Below are positions 7,587 to 57,824 of a stretch of DNA of 64,000 nt, one piece after another. The notes under the pieces are model-generated. The model had not been told where the DNA came from. It saw only the letters and a program-made list of their open reading frames with translations, and ran no database searches. Source of the DNA: a bacterium (GTDB taxonomy: Bacteria; Patescibacteriota; UBA1384; VFKW01); NCBI GenBank assembly GCA_030647355.1, contig JAUSIS010000013.1, forward strand, positions 48,353 through 112,352, read 5' to 3'. The stretch's first letter is position 1. Each line of letters opens with the position of its first letter. Position numbers and translations under genes: made by a program.

Positions 7587-7720
7587 GTTAGGAGATTATT
7601 CATTGAGCACCTATCACAGGCGAGCAAGCTTGGTGTCGCTTCAGTGACTTGCGAGCCGAGGTAGAGAGGCAATTTTCGCTGGAAAAATTGAACGCGTGTG
7701 CTCAAGAATAATCTCCTAAC
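7587..7720. repeat. TIR-flanked dispersed repeat, copy A (about 134 bp) in the ksgA 5' region
   Basis: 23-bp terminal inverted repeats: gttaggagattattcattgagcac at 7587-7610 and gtgctcaagaataatctcctaac at 7698-7720. The core is about 80% identical over about 95 bp to 44374-44507 (shared caattttcgctggaaaa-ttg-acgcgtg). Confidence 0.55.
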
Positions 7721-9915: not shown

Positions 9916-11796
9916 TTAATAATCTAGATTCTCTATCAAATGATTTGGAATATCATCAATAAATCGAGAGCGAAAATTTGTTTGCACCCCGCCATAGACA
10001 ATTCTAGTCAAAGCATAAGTCAGATATAACCGCTTCATCGCCCGGGTAATTCCTACATAACACAGGCGCCTCTCCTCCTCCAACTCATGTTCATCCATTA
10101 AGCTGCGAGAATGCGGAAAAATCCCCTCTTCCATTCCTGCTAAAAATACAGTCGGAAATTCTAAACCCTTTGCTGAATGCATAGTCATCAGAGTCACAGC
10201 ATCCGCACTTTCGTCATAACTGTCAATATCGGAAATGAGCGCCGCTTGCTCTAAAAATTCATCCAAATTATCCAATAAGCTAGCTACATTCATCAGTTCC
10301 TCAATATTTTCCCATCTCCCCTGCCCCTCAATTGTTCCGTCTAAAATAAAATTCTTATATCCTGTCATATCTAGAACTAATCTAATCAATTCGCCAACCT
10401 TCACGCCCTTTGATTTTTCCCGTAACCCTTCAATCATCTTCCAAAATATTTGGATCTTTGGATTTTCACTTTGAGATTTGTCCGCCAGCTGGCGGATTGA
10501 ATTTTGAGCTTTTGGTCCTATTCCTCTGGACGGAACATTAATTATCCGGCGCAGACTTACTTCATCAAGCGGATTGACTATCACCCTTAAGTAAGCCAAG
10601 ATATCCTTTACTTCTTTTCGATCATAAAAGCGAAGCGCCCCGATAACTTTATATGGCACTCGCAGTTTCAACAAACTCTCCTCAAATATGCGTGATTGGG
10701 CATTTGTTCTATATAAAATAGCAAAATCGTTCAAGTTCATACCAGCTTGGCGCAACGCCAACATCTCTGAAATAATAAATTCGCTCTCTTCCTCTCCCGA
10801 TCGCCCCTGAAATACAACAATTGGCACTCCGATAACGTTATCTGTCCATAAGTCTTTAACTGTCCTGTTTCTATTTTTCTCAATGATCATCTGTGCTGCT
10901 TCCAGAATGTTCTTGGTCGATCGGTAATTTTGCTCCAACTTAAATACTTTTGCATCGGGATAATCTTTTTCAAAATTCAAAATATTCTTAAAATTCGCTC
11001 CCCTCCATCCATAGATTGCCTGATAATCATCTCCAACAACACAAATATTATAATGTTTATCGGCTAAAAGTTTTGTTAATTTATACTGCGCCTCATTCGT
11101 ATCCTGGTACTCATCTATCAAGATATATTTGAAAAGGGATTGATATTTTTCCAACACCTCCGGATTATTCTCCAGTAGCAAAACCGTCTGCATGATAAGA
11201 TCATCGAAATCCATTGCCTGCGAAACTCTCAAAGCGCTTTGATACTCTTTGTACACTCGCGTCACTATCTCTTGAAAATGACCATTGGCATACTTCTCAT
11301 ACTCCCCGGGGCCTAAAAGCTCATTTTTCGCTCCTGAAATAAACGAAATAACCGCTTGTGGCGAATATTGCTTTATATCAATCCCTAATTTCTTCATTAC
11401 ATTCTTGGTCAAAACCAATGAGTCTTGGCTATCATATATAGAAAAATTCGAACTGAATCCAATATATTTTGCCTCCCTCCTTAAAATCTTGACGCATATC
11501 GAATGAAAAGTACCCATCCAAGGAAGCTTGGAAATCCCAGATTGCCCCGTACCTGGACGGGAAATCGCAAGCAGCCGATTAACTCGATCAATTAATTCAC
11601 GCGCTGCTTTATTGGTAAAAGTTATAGCTAAAATATGATATGGCGAGACTTTTTTCATTTGTATTAAATATGCCATCCGATGAGCCAAACATCGGGTTTT
11701 ACCACTACCGGCCCCTGCCAATATTAAAATCGGGCCATCCCCGGCAATGACTGCCTCTCGCTGTTTTGTATTCAACTCGTTAAGTAAATCCGACAT
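9916..11796 (-). CDS. pcrA: ATP-dependent DNA helicase PcrA/UvrD (compact form)
   Basis: Walker A motif GAGSGKTR and UvrD helicase motifs I-VI (DEYQDTN, QNYRST, TMHSAKGLEF). It contains the in-frame palindromic-element insertion at 10470-10511. Confidence 0.85.
   Translation of the reverse strand: MSDLLNELNTKQREAVIAGDGPILILAGAGSGKTRCLAHRMAYLIQMKKVSPYHILAITFTNKAARELIDRVNRLLAISRPGTGQSGISKLPWMGTFHSICVKILRREAKYIGFSSNFSIYDSQDSLVLTKNVMKKLGIDIKQYSPQAVISFISGAKNELLGPGEYEKYANGHFQEIVTRVYKEYQSALRVSQAMDFDDLIMQTVLLLENNPEVLEKYQSLFKYILIDEYQDTNEAQYKLTKLLADKHYNICVVGDDYQAIYGWRGANFKNILNFEKDYPDAKVFKLEQNYRSTKNILEAAQMIIEKNRNRTVKDLWTDNVIGVPIVVFQGRSGEEESEFIISEMLALRQAGMNLNDFAILYRTNAQSRIFEESLLKLRVPYKVIGALRFYDRKEVKDILAYLRVIVNPLDEVSLRRIINVPSRGIGPKAQNSIRQLADKSQSENPKIQIFWKMIEGLREKSKGVKVGELIRLVLDMTGYKNFILDGTIEGQGRWENIEELMNVASLLDNLDEFLEQAALISDIDSYDESADAVTLMTMHSAKGLEFPTVFLAGMEEGIFPHSRSLMDEHELEEERRLCYVGITRAMKRLYLTYALTRIVYGGVQTNFRSRFIDDIPNHLIENLDY
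10470..10511. repeat. palindromic element inserted in-frame in pcrA (encodes AQNSIRQLADKSQ)
   Basis: Perfect palindrome tccgccagctggcgga at 10481-10496. The surrounding stretch of about 42 bp is near-identical to 43717-43760 inside nifS. Confidence 0.6.
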
Positions 11797-13790: not shown

Positions 13791-13828
13791 TTATCCACAG
13801 GCAGTCATTACAGAAATAGTTATCCACA
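13791..13828. promoter_or_regulatory. two consensus DnaA boxes (TTATCCACA) 21 bp apart
   Basis: ttatccaca at 13791-13799 and 13820-13828. They lie in an AT-rich 350-bp spacer just 3' of dnaB. The palindrome tccgccagctggcgga follows at 13835-13850. Confidence 0.4.
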
Positions 13829-13853
13829 GTCAATCCGCCAGCTGGCGGACCGA

Positions 13854-15233
13854 CTATCCGCTTGCTGAAATTTTCCTGTGATCCAAATTGCCAAACTTCG
13901 TCTGTTCAGGAATAAAATAGAGCTTAATATCACCGATCGGACCATTACGATGTTTACGTACTAAAATATCTGCAATATTCTTATTTTCCGTTTCTTTATT
14001 GTAATAATCCTCGCGATAAATGAACATAACCACATCCGCATCCTGCTCGATACTTCCGCTCTCCCGCAAATCGGATAACTGAGGAATCTTTCTATCCCTC
14101 TGCTCCACTGCCCTTGATAACTGCGACAGAGCAACTACCGGAATATTCAATTCTCTGGCTAGTGCCTTCAGTGATCGGGAAATCTCCGATACTTCCTGGA
14201 CACGATTAGCATCATTCCCGTGAGAGCTTCGCCCCTCCATTAGTTGCAAATAATCAATAATTACCAAACCCAACCCGTGCTCAACCTGTAGCCGACGCGC
14301 CTTAGCCCGTATCTCCATAACCGAAAGCATCGGCGAATCATCAATAAATATTGGCGCTTCTGCCAGCTCTCCCATCGCTTCTCCGATTTTTCTAAAATCA
14401 TCCTCTGCTAGCTCCCCTTTTCTAAGCCTCCAGGAATCAACCCCCGCCTGCATACAAAGCAACCGATCCACTATCTGATCTCTTGACTGCTCCAATGAAA
14501 ACAAACCCACTGGCACCTTATGCTTAACCGCCGCATATTCAGCAATATTCAAAACAAAGCTGGTTTTACCCATACTGGGACGAGCAGCAATTATGACTAA
14601 ATCTGATTTTTGTAATCCGGATATCAATCCATCTAACTCCTTAAACCCTGTCGGTACACCCCTTAAAGTACCTTTATTTTTATGCAACTCGTCTATTCTA
14701 TCAAATGACTCCTCGAGTACCGATTTTATAGGAACAAAATTATCACTGGTAAATTTCTGGCTGATTGAAAATATAGTGCTTTCCGCTTTATCCAAAACCT
14801 CGGCAATATCGGCAGTTTCATTAAATCCCAGCTCAATTATTGTCGAAGACGCATGTATTAGTCGTCGAAGTGTTGCTTTATGACGAACGATCTCCGCATA
14901 CTTGGCAACATGCGCCGAAGAAGGTACTCCATTAACCAGCGAGGACAGGTACGCCGCTCCTCCTACTTCTTTCAGTTTTTTTCTTGTCTCCAGTTCATTC
15001 GTCAGAGTTACCAAATCAATTGGCGATCTTTTTTCAAATAAAACCAACATAATTTCATAAATCAACTTATGGTCATCACGGTAAAAATTCTCGCTATTCA
15101 AAATGTCCACTACTTTCAATATAGCGTCTTTGTCCAGTAAGATTGCCCCAAGAACTGACTGTTCTGCCTCAATATTTTGGGGGGGGATTTTAGAAGGCAG
15201 CTCGCTTTTCGCCACTAATCCTCCAAGCGTCAA
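13854..15233 (-). CDS. dnaB: replicative DNA helicase
   Basis: N-terminal PQNIEAEQSVLGAILLD. Walker A ARPSMGKTSF. Motifs typical of DnaB (SLEQSRDQI, GLVIIDYLQLM). Confidence 0.9.
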   Translation of the reverse strand: MTLGGLVAKSELPSKIPPQNIEAEQSVLGAILLDKDAILKVVDILNSENFYRDDHKLIYEIMLVLFEKRSPIDLVTLTNELETRKKLKEVGGAAYLSSLVNGVPSSAHVAKYAEIVRHKATLRRLIHASSTIIELGFNETADIAEVLDKAESTIFSISQKFTSDNFVPIKSVLEESFDRIDELHKNKGTLRGVPTGFKELDGLISGLQKSDLVIIAARPSMGKTSFVLNIAEYAAVKHKVPVGLFSLEQSRDQIVDRLLCMQAGVDSWRLRKGELAEDDFRKIGEAMGELAEAPIFIDDSPMLSVMEIRAKARRLQVEHGLGLVIIDYLQLMEGRSSHGNDANRVQEVSEISRSLKALARELNIPVVALSQLSRAVEQRDRKIPQLSDLRESGSIEQDADVVMFIYREDYYNKETENKNIADILVRKHRNGPIGDIKLYFIPEQTKFGNLDHRKISASG

Positions 15234-26866: not shown

Positions 26867-29203
26867 TTATTTTACTTGCTTAAGATAACTTTCCATCGGA
26901 TTCTTCACATCAATCTTATCAGCATCACTTGTCGTCGGCTTGGTTAGAACCGCCCCTTCCCCCTCAAAAGGATCGGCTGGTTTTTGGGAAACTATCGGCA
27001 AAGTGAATTTGAAAATTGCACCCTTACCTCCGCCAGCTGGTGGACTCTCAATCCATATTTTACCACTATGCAGCTCCACCAGTTTCTTGCTGATATAAAG
27101 CCCCAAGCCCGACCCCTGAAATTCGTTTTTTTCGCGATTGAGCTGGCTGAATTTTTTAAATAGTTTATCGGCATCCTCTTGCTTTATCCCCACACCCGTA
27201 TCCGATACTGTAAATTCGAGCGACCTGCCGTCAACCTTCGCCTCAATAGTCACTCCGCCTTTTTCCGTGAACTTGATCGCATTGCCTGCCAAATTAACTA
27301 AAACTTCGCGAATCCTATTTATGTCTATCCAAGTTTGCGGCAATTTATGCTCCGGCTTCTCAAATTTCAAATAAATCTTCTTCGCATTTGATTTTACGCT
27401 CAATTCATCAATAACGCTCTGAACCAATTCCTCCGGACCTATTTCTCCGTACATCAAATGAATTCTCCCCTGCTCGATTCTGGAGACATTTAAAAGATCG
27501 AGTATCAAAACCGCCAACCGTTTGCTGGATGCATAAACTCTATCCAAATATTCTTTGGCCGTAGCGTCAACTTTGCCCATTCCTTCATCCAAAATCATGC
27601 TTAAATAGCCCTGTATTGCCGCCAAAGGCGTATTCATCTCATGACTGGCAACCGAGATAAATTCGTCTTTCATCTGATCCAAATCCTTCAAGTAATCGTT
27701 CGCCTTCTTTAAATTTTCATACGCTATCGCTCTCTGGACAGCCAAGCTTACTTCGTTCGAAATGGCTGCCATCATACTGATCGCTTCGGTGGCAATATCC
27801 TCGATTGGATGTTTCAATCCATAAATGGCCACTCCGAATCTCTCATCCTTAGCTGATAACGGGATGGCAATCAGTCCTTTTATATCACTTTTTGTTTGAA
27901 GTTCCCTAGCTAGAGTCTTATCAAGCGGCGGCGACACAAAATCCGATAGGTTATTCCCCTTCTGTTCCTTTTGACTATGGTACGCCATCATAAGTAAGTT
28001 TTCACGGTTTTTCAGAGGAATGGCAGTCGAACGCACCACTTCCTTCCACTTATCCAAAAGCCCATCAGATAAATTAGTCTCGGACAGGGCATACCCCTTC
28101 ATCTTCTCACTCTCCTGGTCAACCAACGCCACTACCACTCCCATACATTCATCGATCTCCTTAGGAATGGTATTGATAATTTGCTGAATCATCGGCTTCA
28201 TCTCATTATTATCGAGGACTATATCAGAAAATTTCTGCAAAGTTGATAGATTTTTATTTCGCTCGTCAACTTCCTTGAGCGCCCTCTCCCTCTCCTTTGC
28301 CAGCGTCTCCATCTCCTCCCGCTGCTTGATTTCTTTTCTAACACTTCTTATCAACGAAAAACCACCAAATACCGCCAATAACCAGACAATACTCTTAAGC
28401 ATTCCCTCACCAACCGAATTAGATAAAAATACTTCGATCAAAAGACCAAGTGAAAGTAAGATTACTATAGTCTCGGTTGTAACTACTTTAATATCAAACA
28501 AACCTGTTTTTATTATACCGTAAGCTATAAATCCAACGAAAAATATTATTGAATAATTACCAATACGATAGAGCGACTGGTTATCTAGAATAATTGGAAT
28601 AGTGGTATTAAATAAGACCTCAAGAAGAACGAATATCCCAAAACCCAATAATAAGTATTTTAATTGAAGCTTTTTTATACCATAAGTATTAAAATAATTT
28701 CTCACGAAGATTATTAAAGAGGTTAGTAGTAAAATTAGTGAAAAAGGTAGAAATATTTGAAAATAAGCATTACTGGTGATTACATCAAAACCCCATTGAG
28801 TGTGCTTAATCCCCGTTGCAAAAAAAGAAGTAAAAACCGTAACTATAAATAAAATCGTGGCACAAATCAAAATGAATAAATTAAGAAGATTCACATAACG
28901 CGAAAGCTTAATATGAAATGGATAAACTAAAGAAAAGAAGTATAAAGTTATACACATCCCAACAACCGAACCAAAAGTAATTCTACTTAACAATAGCGTT
29001 ACCCACTCGTTTGTATTTACAAAAAACTCAGAAACATAGGCAGAAGAAACTATCAAACATGAAAATAAAGCAAATCCAATAAAATATTTATTAGCAATAT
29101 CTTTGGGATCTTTTAAATATACTACTAATCCTAAAAAGATACATGTGATACAAATAATTAATACACCAATTGATTCCATGTTCAGTAGTAATCCGGAAAT
29201 CAT
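26867..29203 (-). CDS. sensor histidine kinase with a multi-TM N-terminal sensor region
   Basis: About 8 N-terminal TM helices, then a coiled coil and a GAF/PAS-like region. HisKA H-box SHEMNTPLAAIQGY. HATPase_c N, G1 (DTGVGI) and G2 (GSGLGL) boxes. Confidence 0.8.
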   Translation of the reverse strand: MISGLLLNMESIGVLIICITCIFLGLVVYLKDPKDIANKYFIGFALFSCLIVSSAYVSEFFVNTNEWVTLLLSRITFGSVVGMCITLYFFSLVYPFHIKLSRYVNLLNLFILICATILFIVTVFTSFFATGIKHTQWGFDVITSNAYFQIFLPFSLILLLTSLIIFVRNYFNTYGIKKLQLKYLLLGFGIFVLLEVLFNTTIPIILDNQSLYRIGNYSIIFFVGFIAYGIIKTGLFDIKVVTTETIVILLSLGLLIEVFLSNSVGEGMLKSIVWLLAVFGGFSLIRSVRKEIKQREEMETLAKERERALKEVDERNKNLSTLQKFSDIVLDNNEMKPMIQQIINTIPKEIDECMGVVVALVDQESEKMKGYALSETNLSDGLLDKWKEVVRSTAIPLKNRENLLMMAYHSQKEQKGNNLSDFVSPPLDKTLARELQTKSDIKGLIAIPLSAKDERFGVAIYGLKHPIEDIATEAISMMAAISNEVSLAVQRAIAYENLKKANDYLKDLDQMKDEFISVASHEMNTPLAAIQGYLSMILDEGMGKVDATAKEYLDRVYASSKRLAVLILDLLNVSRIEQGRIHLMYGEIGPEELVQSVIDELSVKSNAKKIYLKFEKPEHKLPQTWIDINRIREVLVNLAGNAIKFTEKGGVTIEAKVDGRSLEFTVSDTGVGIKQEDADKLFKKFSQLNREKNEFQGSGLGLYISKKLVELHSGKIWIESPPAGGGKGAIFKFTLPIVSQKPADPFEGEGAVLTKPTTSDADKIDVKNPMESYLKQVK

Positions 29204-31861: not shown

Positions 31862-32236
31862 ATGAAATAATCCCCGTTATTAATATAAATATATCATTAA
31901 TTATGATCGGATACAATATAATTAAATCATAACTATATCTGAAACCATAAATGTCCTCCTTTATTATTCTAATACAGTATAGCCGCCTACGAAAAACTTC
32001 GGTACTTATCAAAAAAATCAAGATCGCCCTGCCCTACTCTCATTTAACCACAATCGCCAAAAAACCCATATAGTCACATATACAAGGAGAGGTAATCCAA
32101 CTTATCCTAATTCTTCACCACCTGAATAGAGTTCAATATCTTTTTCCCAACCCAACCTATCACGCTCTTCTCACACTCTTCCAACCACAACCACTTCGAC
32201 ACATTCCCCCAACCCCAACCCGATATTACCGACCCA

Positions 32237-32271
32237 CCGTAACCGCTTCTGCGCTATAGCGCATAACTAGT
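32237..32271. repeat. 35-bp direct repeat, copy 1 (3' of the PaaX-like gene)
   Basis: ccgtaaccgcttctgcgctatagcgcataactagt, about 86% identical to 32934-32969. Contains the palindrome gcgctatagcgc. Confidence 0.6.
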
Positions 32272-32325
32272 TACGCTTACAGGAGGTACAATATTTAAAA
32301 AAAATGAAGCTGACTCTGAAATATA

Positions 32326-32913
32326 CTATTCACCTTGGTTTAAATTAAAATATTTTACTAATTTATCCGCGCCCGGCAAAAAATCTGTCTTCAAATACGC
32401 GACAAATGAAGAAATTCCACAAGATTGAGTTAAAATCGCAATCTCTTCTTTACATTCGTAAGGAATAACCCATAAACTATCCTGAACCTGAAAAAACCCA
32501 AAATTAATCAATTTCCGCCTGAAGTAATCTCTTTCCTTCTTTTTACTTTCTGGAATATCATAGCTCACCAGATGCCAAATCCCATCCCAATATTCGAATT
32601 TACTAATCACAAGCTCATCAATTTTAAATCTTTCCAATAATTCCAATCCCTTCTCTGTCAATTTGACTTTCTCGCCAGCTAAATAGATAATCCCCTTTTC
32701 TTCCAGCAATTTCAAATTTTTCTTATATCTATATTTTTGCTGACGATTTTGCAACATCAAAACCTGAGCCACATTCGGTGCCACAAATGCCGAGGCCAAG
32801 ATCAACCCTGTCTCCACCATCTTCAAAATTTCCTTTTGCTTTTTCGATATTCTCATAGTTAAATTATAACAAAATACAACTATATTCGTACTACCCAAAT
32901 TTATGCTACCCAA
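32326..32913 (-). CDS. putative transcriptional regulator, wHTH + Cas2/VapD-like C-terminal fold (PaaX-like)
   Basis: Central KKNLKLLEEKGIIYLAGEKVKLTEKGLELLE looks like a winged helix. The C-terminus WHLVSYDIPESKKKERDYFRRKLINFGFFQVQDSLWVIPY resembles the Cas2/PaaX_C beta-alpha-beta pattern. The real start may be the internal M at about 32856. Confidence 0.4.
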   Translation of the reverse strand: MGSINLGSTNIVVFCYNLTMRISKKQKEILKMVETGLILASAFVAPNVAQVLMLQNRQQKYRYKKNLKLLEEKGIIYLAGEKVKLTEKGLELLERFKIDELVISKFEYWDGIWHLVSYDIPESKKKERDYFRRKLINFGFFQVQDSLWVIPYECKEEIAILTQSCGISSFVAYLKTDFLPGADKLVKYFNLNQGE

Positions 32914-32933
32914 CTAAATACCTGATCAACCTA

Positions 32934-32969
32934 TCGTAACCACCTCTGCGCTATAGCGTATAACTAGTG
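32934..32969. repeat. 35-bp direct repeat, copy 2 (5' of the PaaX-like gene)
   Basis: tcgtaaccacctctgcgctatagcgtataactagtg. Confidence 0.6.
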
Positions 32970-33188
32970 ACATATTAATGTGGCAAAAAGCGACATTTCT
33001 ATTTTACATTGACAGAACCGCCATGGAGCCACCAACGAATCTATGACAGTCCGTTGTGGTCCCAAATGGTAAGATAAGACTAGCTGATCAATAGCACGAT
33101 CTAATTCAGGCGATGTGCACGCTCGCTATTGAGGAACTTGCAGACAAGAATGTGCTGCCAGAACCAATAAAGAGAGCTATTATAGCAA

Positions 33189-42603: not shown

Positions 42604-43047
42604 TTAAATATTTTCCTGTTCATTATCAATTCTTCTAGATTTATAGTTCACAATCGCCGCTCGAAGGGCTTGATCGCCCAAAACCGAACAGTGTATTTTG
42701 CGAGCGGGCAGCCCGTCTAGCTTCGACACTATATCCTGGGGACGGATCTTCCCGGCCTCCTCAAGGGTCATTCCGGTTACCATCTCCGACATAACAGAAG
42801 TAGAGGCAATAGCTGAAGCGCACCCAAAGGTCTGCCATTTGCACTCGGTTATCCTATCTTTGGCTACTTTGATAAAAACTCTCATAAGATCGCCGCAAGC
42901 CGGGCTTCCAACCTCTCCCACACCATCAAACTGGTGAATATCAATTTTACCCGAAATAAAATTGCGGGGATTTAAAAAGTGATCCTTAACCTTATCCGAA
43001 TAGACCCAACCCGCACCATCCTGAGAAATGTCAGGTAATTTACTCAT
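42604..43047 (-). CDS. iscU: Fe-S cluster assembly scaffold (NifU/IscU/SufU-type)
   Basis: Conserved Cys triad context GSPACGDLMRVF ... CASAIAS ... HCSVLGDQA. Confidence 0.8.
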   Translation of the reverse strand: MSKLPDISQDGAGWVYSDKVKDHFLNPRNFISGKIDIHQFDGVGEVGSPACGDLMRVFIKVAKDRITECKWQTFGCASAIASTSVMSEMVTGMTLEEAGKIRPQDIVSKLDGLPARKIHCSVLGDQALRAAIVNYKSRRIDNEQENI

Positions 43048-44372
43048 ATTTTCTCCTTATCGCTTCTAATTGCCGAGATACTCCTTAGACGTGAAACGAC
43101 AGATGGCAGTACCGCCAAGACATAATCTATATCTTGTTTAGTTGTCCTGCGGCCAAGACTAAACCTTAAACTACCATGCGCTCCCTCATGTGACAAACCA
43201 ATTGCCTTCAAGACATGAGATGGCTCCAAACTATCAGAATTGCACGCCGAACCCGTTGAAACAGCTATCCCTTCCTCGTCAAGCATCAGCACCATCGCCT
43301 CCCCTTCTACACCATAAAAACTAAAATTAGCATTTCCCGGCAATCTATTAACCTTTGAGCCATTTAAACCGGTGTTGCTTATCCGAGTCAATACCCCATC
43401 AATCAGATAATCACGTAATTTTGCTAATCGGGCAGACTCCCCTGTCCTCTCTCTGTCAGCTATCTTGAGCGCTTCCGTAAACCCGACAATCCCTAGAATA
43501 TTCTCTGTTCCACTTCTTAATCCACCTTGCTGACCACCGCCAAAGATAACAGGTTGTATCTTTACCCCATTTCGCACATACAAAATCCCTATACCCGTCG
43601 GGCCATAAATCTTCGTGCCATTCGAGGTTAACAAATCAACATTTAACCTGTTAACATCCAAATCTAAATATCCAGCGGCTTGACAAGCATCGGTATGAAA
43701 ATATATCTTTCCATTATTTTGAGATTTGTCCGCCAGCTGGCGGATTGATTTTTGAGTTTTCAGCCAATTACCAATTTCGGCGATTGGCTGTACTGTTCCT
43801 ATCTCATTATTGGCATACATTATCGAAATTAAGATGGTTTCAGGTCGAATAGCCTGCTTTATATCTTCTAATTTAACCAGCCCATCCTTATCCACCGGTA
43901 GATATGTAACTTCAAACCCCTCTGATTCTAACTGTTTACAGGCGTTAAGCACAGCATGATGCTCAAATTGAGTAGTAATAATATGCCCTTTACATCTAGA
44001 TTCTGAATTCTGGAACATGGAATTAAGTTTGGAATTTTGAACATCAGAATTTTGGATTTGTTTAGAATTTAGAATTTCGGATTTAGAGTTTGCTCTGGCC
44101 ACCCCCAAAATTGCCAGATTATCACTCTCAGTCCCTCCGGAAGTAAAAACTATCTCATCGCTTTGGCAGTGGAGTATCCAGGAAATTTCCGTCCTGCAGT
44201 CACCTATTTTATCCCTTGTCGCCCTTCCTCTTGTATAAATACTAGACGGATTACCGTAACCTCCCTTTAAATAAGGTTCCATCGCCAAAAATACTCTCTT
44301 ATCGAGAGGTGCCAAAGCCGCATGATCTAAATAAACTTCTCTTCTTTCCATCTTTCCCTCATCATTACTCAA
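43044..44372 (-). CDS. nifS: cysteine desulfurase (NifS/IscS) with two in-frame insertions
   Basis: PLP-dependent class V fold. The active-site loop SGSACNS (catalytic Cys) is present. TTG start with an open frame. Contains a low-complexity insertion (43995-44095) and the palindromic element (43717-43760). Confidence 0.85.
   Translation of the reverse strand: MSNDEGKMERREVYLDHAALAPLDKRVFLAMEPYLKGGYGNPSSIYTRGRATRDKIGDCRTEISWILHCQSDEIVFTSGGTESDNLAILGVARANSKSEILNSKQIQNSDVQNSKLNSMFQNSESRCKGHIITTQFEHHAVLNACKQLESEGFEVTYLPVDKDGLVKLEDIKQAIRPETILISIMYANNEIGTVQPIAEIGNWLKTQKSIRQLADKSQNNGKIYFHTDACQAAGYLDLDVNRLNVDLLTSNGTKIYGPTGIGILYVRNGVKIQPVIFGGGQQGGLRSGTENILGIVGFTEALKIADRERTGESARLAKLRDYLIDGVLTRISNTGLNGSKVNRLPGNANFSFYGVEGEAMVLMLDEEGIAVSTGSACNSDSLEPSHVLKAIGLSHEGAHGSLRFSLGRRTTKQDIDYVLAVLPSVVSRLRSISAIRSDKEKI
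43717..43760. repeat. palindromic element inserted in-frame in nifS (encodes TQKSIRQLADKSQ)
   Basis: tccgccagctggcgga at 43729-43744. Near-identical to 10470-10511. Confidence 0.6.
43995..44095. repeat. degenerate GAATTT-type microsatellite-like tract inside nifS
   Basis: Repeats of gaatt(t)tgga / agaattt. It encodes the low-complexity peptide SKSEILNSKQIQNSDVQNSKLNSMFQNSESR inside the NifS fold. Confidence 0.5.
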
Positions 44373-44373
44373 A

Positions 44374-44507
44374 GGTGAACTGTTTTATCGAAAGGTCTTT
44401 CGCAGGTGAGCAAGCATGGTTCCGCCAACTGGCGGATTGCGAACCGAGAATGAGCGACAATTTTCGCTGGAAAATTGTACGCGTGCCTTGAGATAAAATA
44501 TTTCACC
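44374..44507. repeat. TIR-flanked dispersed repeat, copy B, filling the nfu-nifS intergenic space
   Basis: Inverted repeats of about 22 bp: ggtgaactgttttatcgaaagg and ccttgagataaaatatttcacc. Core about 80% identical to copy A (7587-7720). Carries the palindrome variant tccgccaactggcgga at 44421-44436. Confidence 0.55.
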
Positions 44508-44726
44508 CTACACCGCCCTCAACTCCTTAAATCCCTTCATCTTCTCAGTCAAAAGTTTCTCAACCCCCATTTTAAGAGTTATAGAAGCCATCGGACAACC
44601 ATTACATGCTCCAATCAAATGAACCTTAACAACCCCGTCTTTTAGCTCAACTAATTCAACATCTCCTCCATCGGCCTGCAAACTCGGCCTTATCTCATCT
44701 AATATCTTTTCCACATCTTCATGCAT
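44508..44726 (-). CDS. NifU C-terminal-domain (Nfu-type) Fe-S carrier protein
   Basis: CxxC motif GACNGCPMASITLKMGVE. Confidence 0.7.
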   Translation of the reverse strand: MHEDVEKILDEIRPSLQADGGDVELVELKDGVVKVHLIGACNGCPMASITLKMGVEKLLTEKMKGFKELRAV

Positions 44727-45130
44727 GACGCATCTCCTTTCACTAACTTTCCTAATGTTAAATCACCAATAATACCATCTATCGCTCCCTGTAAAGAAAT
44801 AAGAATCGAATTCCTCGGACAAACTGACGAACCTGCGCACTCCTTTTCCCCTCCACAACAGGGACAGTGGATAATCGGCTCGCCGATCGCCTCCAAGACC
44901 TCCCTTAAAACTATCCTATCTGCAGGCTTGGCTAGCCGATAACCGCCGGATTTACCTTCTTCACCCGCAACTAACCCTGCTTTTGATAGTAAAAAAGCTA
45001 CATTTCGCAGCAATCCATAAGAAACCTGACATTTTTTCGCCAGTTGAGATAAGGACACTAGTCCGGTGCCCTCAAGCGCCAGTTCGCTGGCTAGTATCAC
45101 AGAATATTCTGCTTTTTTAGTAAATTTCAT
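44699..45130 (-). CDS. Rrf2-family transcriptional regulator (IscR-like)
   Basis: N-terminal wHTH (KAEYSVILASELA...LSQLAKKCQVSYGLL) and a C-terminal Cys cluster CPCCGGEKECAGSSVC. Confidence 0.75.
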   Translation of the reverse strand: MKFTKKAEYSVILASELALEGTGLVSLSQLAKKCQVSYGLLRNVAFLLSKAGLVAGEEGKSGGYRLAKPADRIVLREVLEAIGEPIIHCPCCGGEKECAGSSVCPRNSILISLQGAIDGIIGDLTLGKLVKGDASCMKMWKRY

Positions 45131-45224: not shown

Positions 45225-45485
45225 TTATTTTAGCTCAAGTATTTTATCAATTTTTTCCCTGTCAAAACCTATGATAATTTCATCCCCGACCCATATCTGC
45301 GGTACGCTTGTCTGACCGGACTTCCCCACCATCTTTTCAGATTGATAAGGATCTATCAAAACATCAATCGCTTTATATCTAACTTTCTTTTCGTCCAAAT
45401 ATTGCTTCAATCGTAAACACCATGGACATTGGGGTGTTGAATATACAATAACATTTTTATCCATAATCCCCCTAAATGGCGTCAA
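45225..45485 (-). CDS. glutaredoxin-like protein
   Basis: CPWC active site in a thioredoxin fold. 86 aa. Confidence 0.7.
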   Translation of the reverse strand: MTPFRGIMDKNVIVYSTPQCPWCLRLKQYLDEKKVRYKAIDVLIDPYQSEKMVGKSGQTSVPQIWVGDEIIIGFDREKIDKILELK

Positions 45486-45771
45486 CCATCTTCAAAATAG
45501 CTTCAACTTCCGCTTTCTTGACTGACTTTATCTTGTAATGCTTCTTTTTACCGCATTTCTTTTCACTCACATACCCCGCCTCGACTAAATATTTCATATG
45601 ATATGACAATAAATTCTTTGGCATCTTGAGCAGATTCACCAGATCGCAGCCGCAGTAAGTGTCCTCACATTTAAATAGAGCTGAGAGTAAAAGAATTTTG
45701 CTGTCATTAAAGATTCGCAACTTATCTAAAGTGGGTTTATTTAGTCTCATCTGTCCTCCTAAGTTCAACAT
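45472..45771 (-). CDS. ArsR/SmtB-family metalloregulator
   Basis: HTH region plus the CGC metal-site motif (EDTYCGCDLVNLLKMPKNLLSYHMKYLVEAGYV). Confidence 0.7.
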   Translation of the reverse strand: MLNLGGQMRLNKPTLDKLRIFNDSKILLLSALFKCEDTYCGCDLVNLLKMPKNLLSYHMKYLVEAGYVSEKKCGKKKHYKIKSVKKAEVEAILKMVDAI

Positions 45772-52611: not shown

Positions 52612-52817
52612 AAAACTATGTGCCTTATGGAGATGCTTTATCTTAGGTGTTGAGCAATCCTGGTGCTCGCAGTATGCCAGCTTTCCCTCCTTTGCTATTC
52701 TATCTTACAGAAGTTAATTCTGCCCGTCAACTGTTGAAAACCTGAAGGCAAACCGACGAAAACGGCCTTTCCTCCAATCAAGAATCAACAAGATAGCTGA
52801 AAAACTGCAAAAAGCTT

Positions 52818-53040
52818 CTAAATTTATTCTTCGAGTGTCGAACCGTGCGGAACAAAACTTATTCTTCGAGCGATCGGACTGTGCGGAAACTAAATTTATT
52901 CACCGAGCAGTCGAACACTACGGAAACTAAATTTATTCTTCGAGCGATCCGCCAACTGGCGGAAACTAAATTTATTCACCGAGCAGTCGAACACTACGGA
53001 AACTAAATTTATTCTTCGAGCGATCCGCCAACTGGCGGAG
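52818..53040. repeat. degenerate 37-38 bp tandem repeat array (about 6 units) upstream of the giant surface protein gene
   Basis: Units share the core aaactaaatttattc(tt/ac)cgag plus a 22-nt variable part. Two alternating unit types give a 76-bp super-period. Two units carry tccgccaactggcgga (52948-52963 and 53024-53039). Confidence 0.7.
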
Positions 53041-53147
53041 AGTCGAGAAGTTACAATCATCAGTTCTCAACCCTTCGACCATACTCGGGGTAAACAAGCT
53101 CGAACAATAAGAATATTCCGGATTCTTCGGGGCATCGATAGGAAGTC

Positions 53148-53699
53148 CTATTTTATTGCATTAAGAAACTCATTCCGAGTCGAAGCAGATGTCAGGAAAA
53201 ATCCTCGAAGTGAAGTAGTAACTAGAGTTGAGTGTTGTTTACTCACCCCCCTCATCCGCATACAAAAATGTTCCGCCTCTATCTGCACCGCCACACCTAG
53301 CGGCTTGAGAATATCTTCTAAAGAATCGGCAATCTCATCCGTCAATCTCTCTTGTATCTGTGCCCTTCTGGCATAGATCTCCATGAGTCTGGCAAGTTTT
53401 GAAATCCCGATCACTTTCTTATCCGGTAAATATGCAATATGACACTTTCCAACAAAAGGTAAAAGATGATGTTCGCACATCGAATACAGCTCAACATCCT
53501 TCAGTAAAACCATGCCCGTATAACCCGCGTGATCAAAAACTGTCAAAACCTTCTTCGGGTCTTTACCATACCCGCTGTACAGCTCCTTCCAACTATTAAT
53601 TATTCGCTTCGGCGTATACCGTAACCCCTCTCTGTCTGGATCTTCACCAATGTGCTTAAGTATCTCCTTAATCATTTTTTCGTATTTATTCTCATCCAT
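53148..53699 (-). CDS. folE: GTP cyclohydrolase I
   Basis: Conserved CEHHLLPF zinc site and [13 protein letters not shown]. Confidence 0.9.
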
Positions 53700-57679: not shown

Positions 57680-57753
57680 TGGCTGCCGGACTAGGACTCG
57701 AACCTAGATTAACAGGACCAGAACCTGTCGTCCTACCGTTAGACGATCCGGCA
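57680..57753 (-). tRNA. tRNA-Gln (anticodon CUG), CCA encoded
   Basis: Manual fold: U1:A72 acceptor UGCCGGA/UCCGGCA, G73 discriminator, D-arm GTCT-AACGGTA-GGAC, anticodon loop TTCTGGT, T-arm CTAGG-TTCGAGT-CCTAG. U1:A72 plus G73 are classic Gln identity features. Confidence 0.8.
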
Positions 57754-57773: not shown

Positions 57774-57824
57774 ACCTAGGTTCCAAGGTCCAGAACCTTG
57801 TGTCCTACCGCTAGACGATCCCGG
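57774..57824 (-). pseudogene. truncated tRNA-Gln(CUG) duplicate (5' two-thirds only)
   Basis: CCGGGATCGTCTAGCGGTAGGACACAAGGTTCTGGACCTTGGAACCTAGGT matches the acceptor 5' strand, D-arm and anticodon arm of the adjacent tRNA-Gln, then diverges with no T-arm or acceptor 3' strand. Confidence 0.45.

Follow-up and report, generated by a model that had tools for sequence, protein, structure and literature searches.

A nested tandem-repeat array between folE and a giant surface-protein gene in a Patescibacteriota genome

Does a tandem array in front of a gene for a giant surface protein serve the regulation of this gene, or is it repetitive DNA without dedicated function? The question arises at 52815-53038 of the window, by which we mean the whole stretch of 64,000 nucleotides analysed here (GC content, 41%), where a 224-bp head-to-tail tandem repeat separates folE from a gene for a giant membrane-anchored protein of an uncultured Patescibacteria (CPR) bacterium. 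The front of giant surface-protein genes is a classical place for regulatory repeats, and to our knowledge gene regulation in CPR organisms is almost unstudied. A literature search found no description of such arrays in CPR organisms; the nearest homologs of the window proteins come from Saccharibacteria, Uhrbacteria, Nealsonbacteria and 'Patescibacteria group' MAGs. Our best explanation, which we hold with moderate confidence, is that the array is a lineage-specific intergenic minisatellite (VNTR-type) that arose through nested duplications, may vary in copy number and has no dedicated function.

Structure of the array

The array consists of six units of 35-39 bp (typically ~37 bp), all in direct orientation, which pair up as three dimers of ~76 bp (u1+u2, u3+u4 and u5+u6). 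Tandem Repeats Finder reported it with a period of 37 at 52818-53025 (5.6 copies, 75% matches, score 235) and with a period of 76 at 52818-53039 (3.0 copies, 90% matches, score 337). By either count (5.6 or 3.0) there are at least three head-to-tail copies of a unit of 10-100 bp, as in a minisatellite. The unit borders were set by hand and with MAFFT, and this alignment agrees with Tandem Repeats Finder on what the preliminary description had proposed, a degenerate 37-38-bp array of about six units with a 76-bp super-period. The parts of the array are as follows.

52815-53038, no strand assigned: whole array, delimited by Tandem Repeats Finder periods 37 and 76, the repeat family and an nhmmer unit profile
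52815-52851, forward: u1, old type-A-like unit with intact core CTAAATTTATTC and a short TTCGA/TCGAA hairpin
52852-52886, forward: u2, old type-B-like unit with degenerate core (CAAAACTTATTC), without the palindrome
52887-52923, forward: u3, type A, ...CACCGAGCAGTCGAACACTACGG
52924-52962, forward: u4, type B, bearing the palindrome
52887-52962, forward: dimer u3+u4, 76 bp
52963-52999, forward: u5, copy of u3
53000-53038, forward: u6, copy of u4
52963-53038, forward: dimer u5+u6, exact copy of u3+u4 (100% identity)
52949-52962, no strand assigned: CCGCCAACTGGCGG palindrome in u4 (5-bp stem, 4-nt loop, -8 to -9 kcal/mol)
53025-53038, no strand assigned: CCGCCAACTGGCGG palindrome in u6, as in u4
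53098-53131, reverse: weak inverted unit-like stretch in the folE-proximal flank, GCTCGAACAATAAGAATATTCCGGATTCTTCG, aligned locally with the reverse complement of the unit

Each unit is laid out as a core, (AAA)CTAAATTTATTC-NN-CGAG, followed by a more variable part that ends in CGG. The exact core AAACTAAATTTATTC is present in four of the six units, and u1 and u2 are each three mismatches away from it. Units u3 and u5 are the same letter for letter, as are u4 and u6, and a repeat search of the window accordingly returned 100% identity between 52883-52958 and 52959-53034; this exact identity of the two dimers indicates a recent duplication. The u1+u2 dimer has diverged from this identical pair. 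An alternation of two unit types had been described for the array as a whole; it is exact across u3-u6, whereas the dimer of u1 and u2 is older and has diverged, and its halves are more alike than u3 and u4. The palindrome had been said to be embedded in one unit variant, and indeed CCGCCAACTGGCGG stands at 52949 and 53025. In the flanks, the GCTCGAACAATAAGAATATTCCGGATTCTTCG stretch is the sole match to a degenerate unit, and a marginal one (score 22 versus a shuffle mean of 13.5, p about 0.013).

Flanking genes and homologous loci

The array lies upstream of the giant gene, as first described, and it is also the 3' flank of folE, starting 109 nt past the folE stop (53148). Both genes are on the same strand. 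A gene for a DUF4870 protein is also among the neighbours, and MacB-type ABC transporter genes follow the giant gene in conserved synteny. The features around the array are listed below.

53148-53699, reverse: folE for GTP cyclohydrolase I (Pfam, E=1e-72), the gene immediately upstream of the giant gene
52702-52730, reverse: predicted sigma-70-type promoter, TTGACG-17-TAAGAT, outside the array, between array and giant gene
52678-52691, reverse: Shine-Dalgarno sequence AGGAGGG (52691-52685) and probable CTG start (52680-52678), from N-terminal conservation with locus L082
48460-52680, reverse: gene for the giant DUF2341/fibronectin-III/Pur_ac_phosph_N-like membrane-anchored protein, from Pfam, homologs and synteny in loci L082 and L086

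The giant protein has 1383-1406 aa depending on the start chosen; the mechanical open reading frame gives 1383 aa, and the NCBI protein P0001 (1359 aa) starts still further downstream than TTG 52611. The probable start codon is CTG 52680, which precedes the first ATG, GTG or TTG by ~70 nt, and not TTG 52611, because AGGAGGG lies upstream of the CTG and the sequence in frame upstream of TTG 52611 is conserved as protein with the 46%-identical ortholog in L082. The N-terminal motif reads AYCEHQDCS..KAHSFLCSKS..YH.WHH here and GYCDDEKCS..KAHGFLCSKS..YH.WHH in L082, so that a Cys/His-rich segment (YCxxxxCS...C...H.WHH..HH) is common to both proteins. AGGAGGG precedes both starts, and L082 has TTG where CTG 52680 stands here. 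The ortholog also carries a -10-like hexamer, TAAGTT, at an equal position relative to the Shine-Dalgarno sequence. The earlier distance of 200-430 bp between array and giant gene holds for TTG 52611 (207-429 bp), while for the likely start it becomes ~138-360 bp. The array is ~90-310 bp upstream of the predicted -35 element, its nearest unit ending 88 bp away from this element, and the predicted promoter is not within it.

Close homologs of the giant protein are scarce, and only one of 5.8 billion proteins is related to it at more than 40% identity. We compared three homologous giant-gene loci, in which the upstream gaps are 3-85 nt and could hardly accommodate an array. In L082 (46% identity, ABC/FtsX synteny kept), ~70 nt separate the upstream gene from the Shine-Dalgarno sequence and start, and Tandem Repeats Finder finds no repeat there. 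In L086 and L087 (35% identity, matching synteny) the upstream gap is 85 nt and the array is absent, and it is likewise absent from L088, where tandem paralogs stand 3-4 nt apart. On the folE side, the closest folE (L005, 80% identity) has another gene directly downstream and no array. These absences suggest that the array is lineage-specific and that the giant gene family is expressed without it. The preliminary description had named, among what would speak against its proposals, a lack of conservation upstream of orthologous genes, and at all three homologous loci this lack was found. Moreover, an array of such kind is not unusual, since unrelated bacterial loci totalling 1.17 Mb contain ~15 arrays according to Tandem Repeats Finder (period at least 20, score at least 100), of which several exceed a score of 200.

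Nature of the array

Recognisable signals are absent from the array. No sigma-70-type promoter was found inside the units on either strand, while the organism does use the canonical consensus (TTTACA-17-TATAAT upstream of tRNA-Gln), and tandem promoters were therefore rejected. Tandem terminators or attenuators were rejected as well, as no unit has an intrinsic terminator (a hairpin with a trailing T-run). When single units were folded, only u4 and u6 beat their shuffles (-8.4 to -9.4 kcal/mol), the others forming different weak hairpins; stable folding is thus limited to the units with the palindrome, no hairpin is common to all units, and a repeated RNA hairpin was dismissed. A known RNA family was set aside on Rfam 15, in which nothing reached the gathering score and the only match had 14.3 bits (gathering score, 58). 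A replication origin or DnaA cluster was considered on account of TTATTCACC in u3 and u5, but the GC skew is negative across the entire window without a sign change and no DnaA box TTATCCACA was found inside the array within one mismatch; thus the array is not an origin. A coding repeat fails too, since periods of 37, 39 and 76 bp are not divisible by three and the 53- and 54-aa open reading frames shift frame from copy to copy, so that no repeat peptide is encoded.

Searches for the unit and its parts beyond the array gave a similar picture. An nhmmer profile of the six units found no copy outside the array in the 64-kb window, the 12-nt and 15-nt cores are not enriched there, and a regulon-type distribution of the core in the window was thus discarded. 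With up to four substitutions allowed, nothing else in the window matches the variable halves, which leaves them without antisense or target sites in it. In JGI metagenome contigs the pattern AAACTAAATTTATTCNNCGAG gave two singletons, on unrelated AT-rich contigs and neither in a repeat array, which we regard as chance, and it had no match in viral contigs. The other arrays with this core that had been suggested as a search target were therefore encountered in none of these collections.

The statement that the array is not CRISPR-like stands. CRISPR arrays have near-identical direct repeats of ~23-55 nt and unique spacers of ~20 nt or more, and CPR type V CRISPR systems include short-spacer arrays. 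A likeness exists in that a conserved block alternates with a more variable one in a CPR host. However, the conserved block here has ~21-25 nt and varies at two positions. The variable parts are short (12-16 nt), share homology among themselves and are duplicated, and a Pfam scan of the window open reading frames of at least 150 aa found no Cas or transposase domains in the 64 kb. These reading frames belong to housekeeping, type IV pilus, Fe-S cluster and ABC transporter genes. A CRISPR-like mini-array was rejected on these grounds.

We come back to the minisatellite, for which the nested, partly diverged copies speak, as slippage or unequal recombination classically leaves such a pattern. 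Between u1 and u2 the variable halves differ at 6 of 18 positions and those of u3 and u4 at 10 of 18, and from this closer likeness of the older pair we propose an order of events: dimer, dimer duplication, divergence and recent re-duplication. An ancestral intergenic segment of ~37 bp would have doubled head to tail into a dimer of ~75 bp, and this dimer would itself have been duplicated. One dimer may then have diverged, its type-B half changing from GATCGGACTGTGCGG to GATCCGCCAACTGGCGG, the genome's common palindrome, and the diverged dimer would very recently have been duplicated again to give the two identical 76-bp copies. Slipped-strand mispairing or unequal recombination between direct repeats would be the mechanism. 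The array would then occupy the spacer from the end of folE to the giant gene's own proximal promoter and be dispensable for expression of the gene family, its most likely consequences being added length in the intergenic spacer and a tendency of the locus to change in copy number. The anatomy of the array, its absence at homologous loci and the lack of recognisable signals are observations; we infer both the duplication mechanism and the lack of function, and neutrality is argued here from absence.

MIRU-VNTRs of mycobacteria are a dispersed minisatellite family with many loci and documented copy-number polymorphism. The array resembles them in its intergenic head-to-tail units of tens of bp, the co-directional genes around it and the nested, partly diverged copies; its youngest copies are identical, which would imply ongoing gain and loss. 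On the other hand, the unit here is confined to a single locus in 64 kb, with none of the dispersal of MIRUs, and it is for MIRUs that polymorphism is documented. A recent paper deals with phase-variable tandem-repeat copy number in M. tuberculosis (PMC12817950). Three points speak against a minisatellite, namely the conservation of the core, the dyad of u3-u6 and the position before a giant surface-protein gene. As it stands the array matters little, because intergenic minisatellites are common and this one is not conserved, but it might be of use in this lineage as a marker for strain typing or copy number.

The main rival, which we consider unlikely yet worth weighing, is an operator- or iteron-like array of protein-binding sites. 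Its site would be the ~22-25-bp block CGGAAACTAAATTTATTCNNCG, centred on the palindrome TAAATTTA, and six such sites 37-39 bp apart upstream of the promoter would repress, activate or insulate the giant gene. The position ~90-310 bp upstream of the predicted -35 suits this proposal, and so does the core, which is less variable than the rest of the unit: in the four distinct units, 4 of 18 columns vary in the 18-nt core (CTAAATTTATTC-NN-CGAG) versus 12 of the other 18 (Fisher p=0.018, post hoc), and every unit pair has 0-4 differences in the core versus 6-10 elsewhere. This lower variation is the sole hint of constraint, a weak one, that uniform neutral decay would not predict. In a genome of 41% GC, the AT-rich core may simply be closer to mutational equilibrium than the GC-rich half, or have a lower mutation rate. 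Because the partition was chosen post hoc and base composition is confounded with it, we count the core as weak support for binding.

In addition, CGGAAACTAAATTTATTCNNCG forms in the four units u3-u6 an imperfect 22-bp dyad of 8/11 pairs that resembles an operator, and 0.15% of the 22-mers in the window reach 8/11. Tandem units with a short inverted repeat may also be likened to centromere-like and iteron arrays. F-plasmid sopC consists of 43-bp tandem units, each with a short inverted repeat. The array shares with sopC and iterons its tandem units of ~40 bp with a short AT-rich dyad (TAAATTTA within the 8/11 dyad of 22 bp). Against such a role, the dyad is missing from u1 and u2, the core is at chance level elsewhere in the window, the three homologous loci lack the array, no regulator, rep or par gene is adjacent (the neighbours are folE, the DUF4870 protein gene and ABC transporter genes), and the context is chromosomal and housekeeping, with no plasmid or phage. 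Regulator genes of this genome lie further away, at 45472-45750 (ArsR-type), 44699-45130 (Rrf2) and 32326-32913 (PaaX-like). A bolder form of the proposal, which we think rather improbable, is that the 22-25-bp block is the operator of an undescribed DNA-binding protein, that the array is a copy-number-variable, iteron-like control of the giant gene and that its palindrome units were recruited from a genome-wide element that also inserts in frame into genes.

A phase-variable or graded switch seems less probable again. The gain or loss of 37- or 76-bp units would shift the distance or helical phase between the giant-gene promoter and an upstream element, or folE read-through, and the population would become heterogeneous for the surface protein. 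Slippage or recombination could readily act on the perfect 2 x 76-bp duplication, the graph of the k=31 assembly described below has the cycle expected of repeated dimers, and the target is a giant surface protein. Yet the repeats lie neither between -35 and -10 nor in the reading frame, no upstream spacing-dependent element was identified, orthologs do without the array, and no copy-number variant was seen in the single sample carrying the organism. The SSR phase-variable promoters of Neisseria and Haemophilus have units of 1-7 bp in the promoter spacer, 5' UTR or open reading frame, where length acts directly. Like them, the array is a repeat tract upstream of a surface-protein gene; in contrast, its units are 37-76 bp long and lie upstream of the predicted -35, outside the -35/-10 spacer, the 5' UTR and any open reading frame. 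The two roles first suggested for the array, a set of binding sites or a phase-variable promoter element, are unsupported by these analyses: the predicted promoter is outside the array, and the core is at chance level elsewhere. If a regulator were truly to bind, or if copy number did affect the giant protein, the locus would be a rare case of cis-regulatory variation in CPR organisms.

No more probable than the switch is a REP/BIME-like cluster, in which the dispersed palindrome TCCGCCAGCTGGCGGA would be selfish or repair-driven and would have been amplified locally along with its flanks to form the array. The palindrome is certainly frequent, with eight CCGCCAACTGGCGG sites within two mismatches in the window versus 0.18 expected (about 40-fold over-represented by our estimate), and the identical 14-mer is also found at 44422. 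It occurs in intergenic DNA, in frame in two genes (as part of a ~43-nt segment) and in a hairpin slot of a conserved motif upstream of genes. Among the type-B units it is missing from the older u2 but present in u4 and u6, which gives the impression that the unit acquired it. The palindrome string appeared in no indexed paper. In BIMEs of enterobacteria every unit is palindromic and successive units alternate in orientation. The array is similar to these in its over-represented GC-rich palindrome in intergenic DNA past a gene 3' end and in its two alternating unit types with a super-period, but its units are all direct, only every second young unit (two of the six units) is palindromic, and the others have no stable stem-loop. 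Dispersal and over-representation apply to the 14-nt palindrome only and not to the whole unit, the remainder of which is outside the dispersed family, and no RAYT or IS200-like transposase is among the window open reading frames of at least 150 aa.

A structured RNA repeat, acting for example as a stabiliser or protein sponge in the folE 3' UTR or in a long 5' UTR of the giant gene, is very unlikely. The flanking genes are co-directional, no convincing terminator follows folE, and the region taken as a whole has a somewhat more stable predicted fold than its shuffles (z about -2.7 and -3.0). However, this modest gain is equal on both strands and is expected of repeats with two palindromes, single units apart from the palindrome units fold no better than shuffles and have no common hairpin, Rfam gives nothing at E up to 1 and a lone hit of E=5.6 when E up to 10 is allowed, and the predicted promoter is downstream of the array.

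Finally, a mis-assembled repeat is hardly credible, even though MAG assemblies are prone to errors at perfect short repeats and the dimer count comes from the MAG only, because an independent k=31 assembly has both flanks and junctions and stops only where the recurring dimer makes k-mers ambiguous. In this Logan assembly of run SRR13727527, the flanks of the array are found on two contigs, L001 (at its end) and L085 (at its start). One of them ends exactly at the k-mer that is shared if a second type-B unit exists, and the other begins exactly at the first k-mer unique to the junction from type A to u2, so that the flank-to-B and A-to-u2 junctions are both reproduced. The breaks at k=31 fall on k-mers that branch if two or more dimers are present, which makes a pure assembly artefact unlikely; the repeat is real and not an invention of the assembler, its exact number of dimers being that of the MAG assembly. 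Exact look-ups of folE and of the ABC protein matched only Logan contigs of this one run, so that the organism is represented by a single sample and a single MAG, and those of P0001 and two proteins at the window edges gave no matches. Public assemblies with short k will systematically split the locus at the branch k-mers and so hide the array.

The palindrome and other elements in the window

Three by-products of this analysis may deserve more attention than the array itself, namely the corrected start of the giant gene, an in-frame palindromic segment in UvrD and IscS, and an unannotated motif of ~90 nt. The palindrome-containing segment TTTGAGATTTGTCCGCCAGCTGGCGGATTGAWTTTTGAG of ~43 nt is 95% identical at 10470-10512 and 43718-43760. 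It lies in frame in two unrelated minus-strand genes, for a UvrD/PcrA-type helicase (9916-11796) and for the cysteine desulfurase IscS (43044-44372), and each copy yields the peptide SIRQLADKSQ. Against solved IscS structures, the IscS copy belongs to an insertion of 15 residues; against CPR IscS homologs it falls in a variable loop, at which other lineages carry insertions of their own. Some of these homologs have one peptide at two sites of a single protein (e.g. P0025). In the helicase the segment makes no net insertion relative to PcrA. The segments resemble in-frame insertions of palindromic elements such as the Rickettsia RPEs.

IscS contains a further insertion at residues ~98-126 (43983-44090, reverse), a 29-residue low-complexity stretch SEILNSKQIQNSDVQNSKLNSMFQNSESR whose DNA consists of AAATTC/CAAAATTC-like repeats. 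At the two matching loop positions, IscS homologs of other CPR organisms have unrelated insertions. A one-mismatch palindrome, CCGCCAGCTGGTGG, is located at 27030-27043 inside a histidine kinase gene (26867-29203), where it is read in a different frame and encodes PPAGG.

Two 43-nt copies at 32232-32274 and 32929-32971, 86% identical and each with the palindrome GCGCTATAGCGC, flank a PaaX-like gene with a Cas2-like middle domain (32326-32913). They could be operators or terminators. Another copy of the genome palindrome, at 13835, is adjoined by two perfect DnaA boxes TTATCCACA (13791 and 13820; whole span, 13791-13848), just beyond the 3' end of dnaB (13854-15233, reverse). This site is probably not an origin, because the GC skew does not change sign there.

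A truncated tRNA-Gln-like copy (~57775-57822, reverse), uncalled by ARAGORN and Rfam, comprises the 5' ~50 nt with the anticodon region CTG and is placed between the TTTACA-17-TATAAT promoter mentioned above and the intact tRNA-Gln (57680-57753).

The ~90-nt motif is present upstream of ksgA (7596-7695, reverse) and upstream of iscS (44386-44485, reverse), with about 80% identity between the two copies and no Rfam match. RNAalifold predicts three stems, with a hairpin CAATTTTC/GAAAATTG and a stem enclosing a variable hairpin, and there are four compensatory pairs, counted from two sequences. In one copy the genome palindrome forms this central hairpin, whereas the other copy has a different one there. 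The motif is a candidate for an undescribed cis-regulatory RNA or DNA element.
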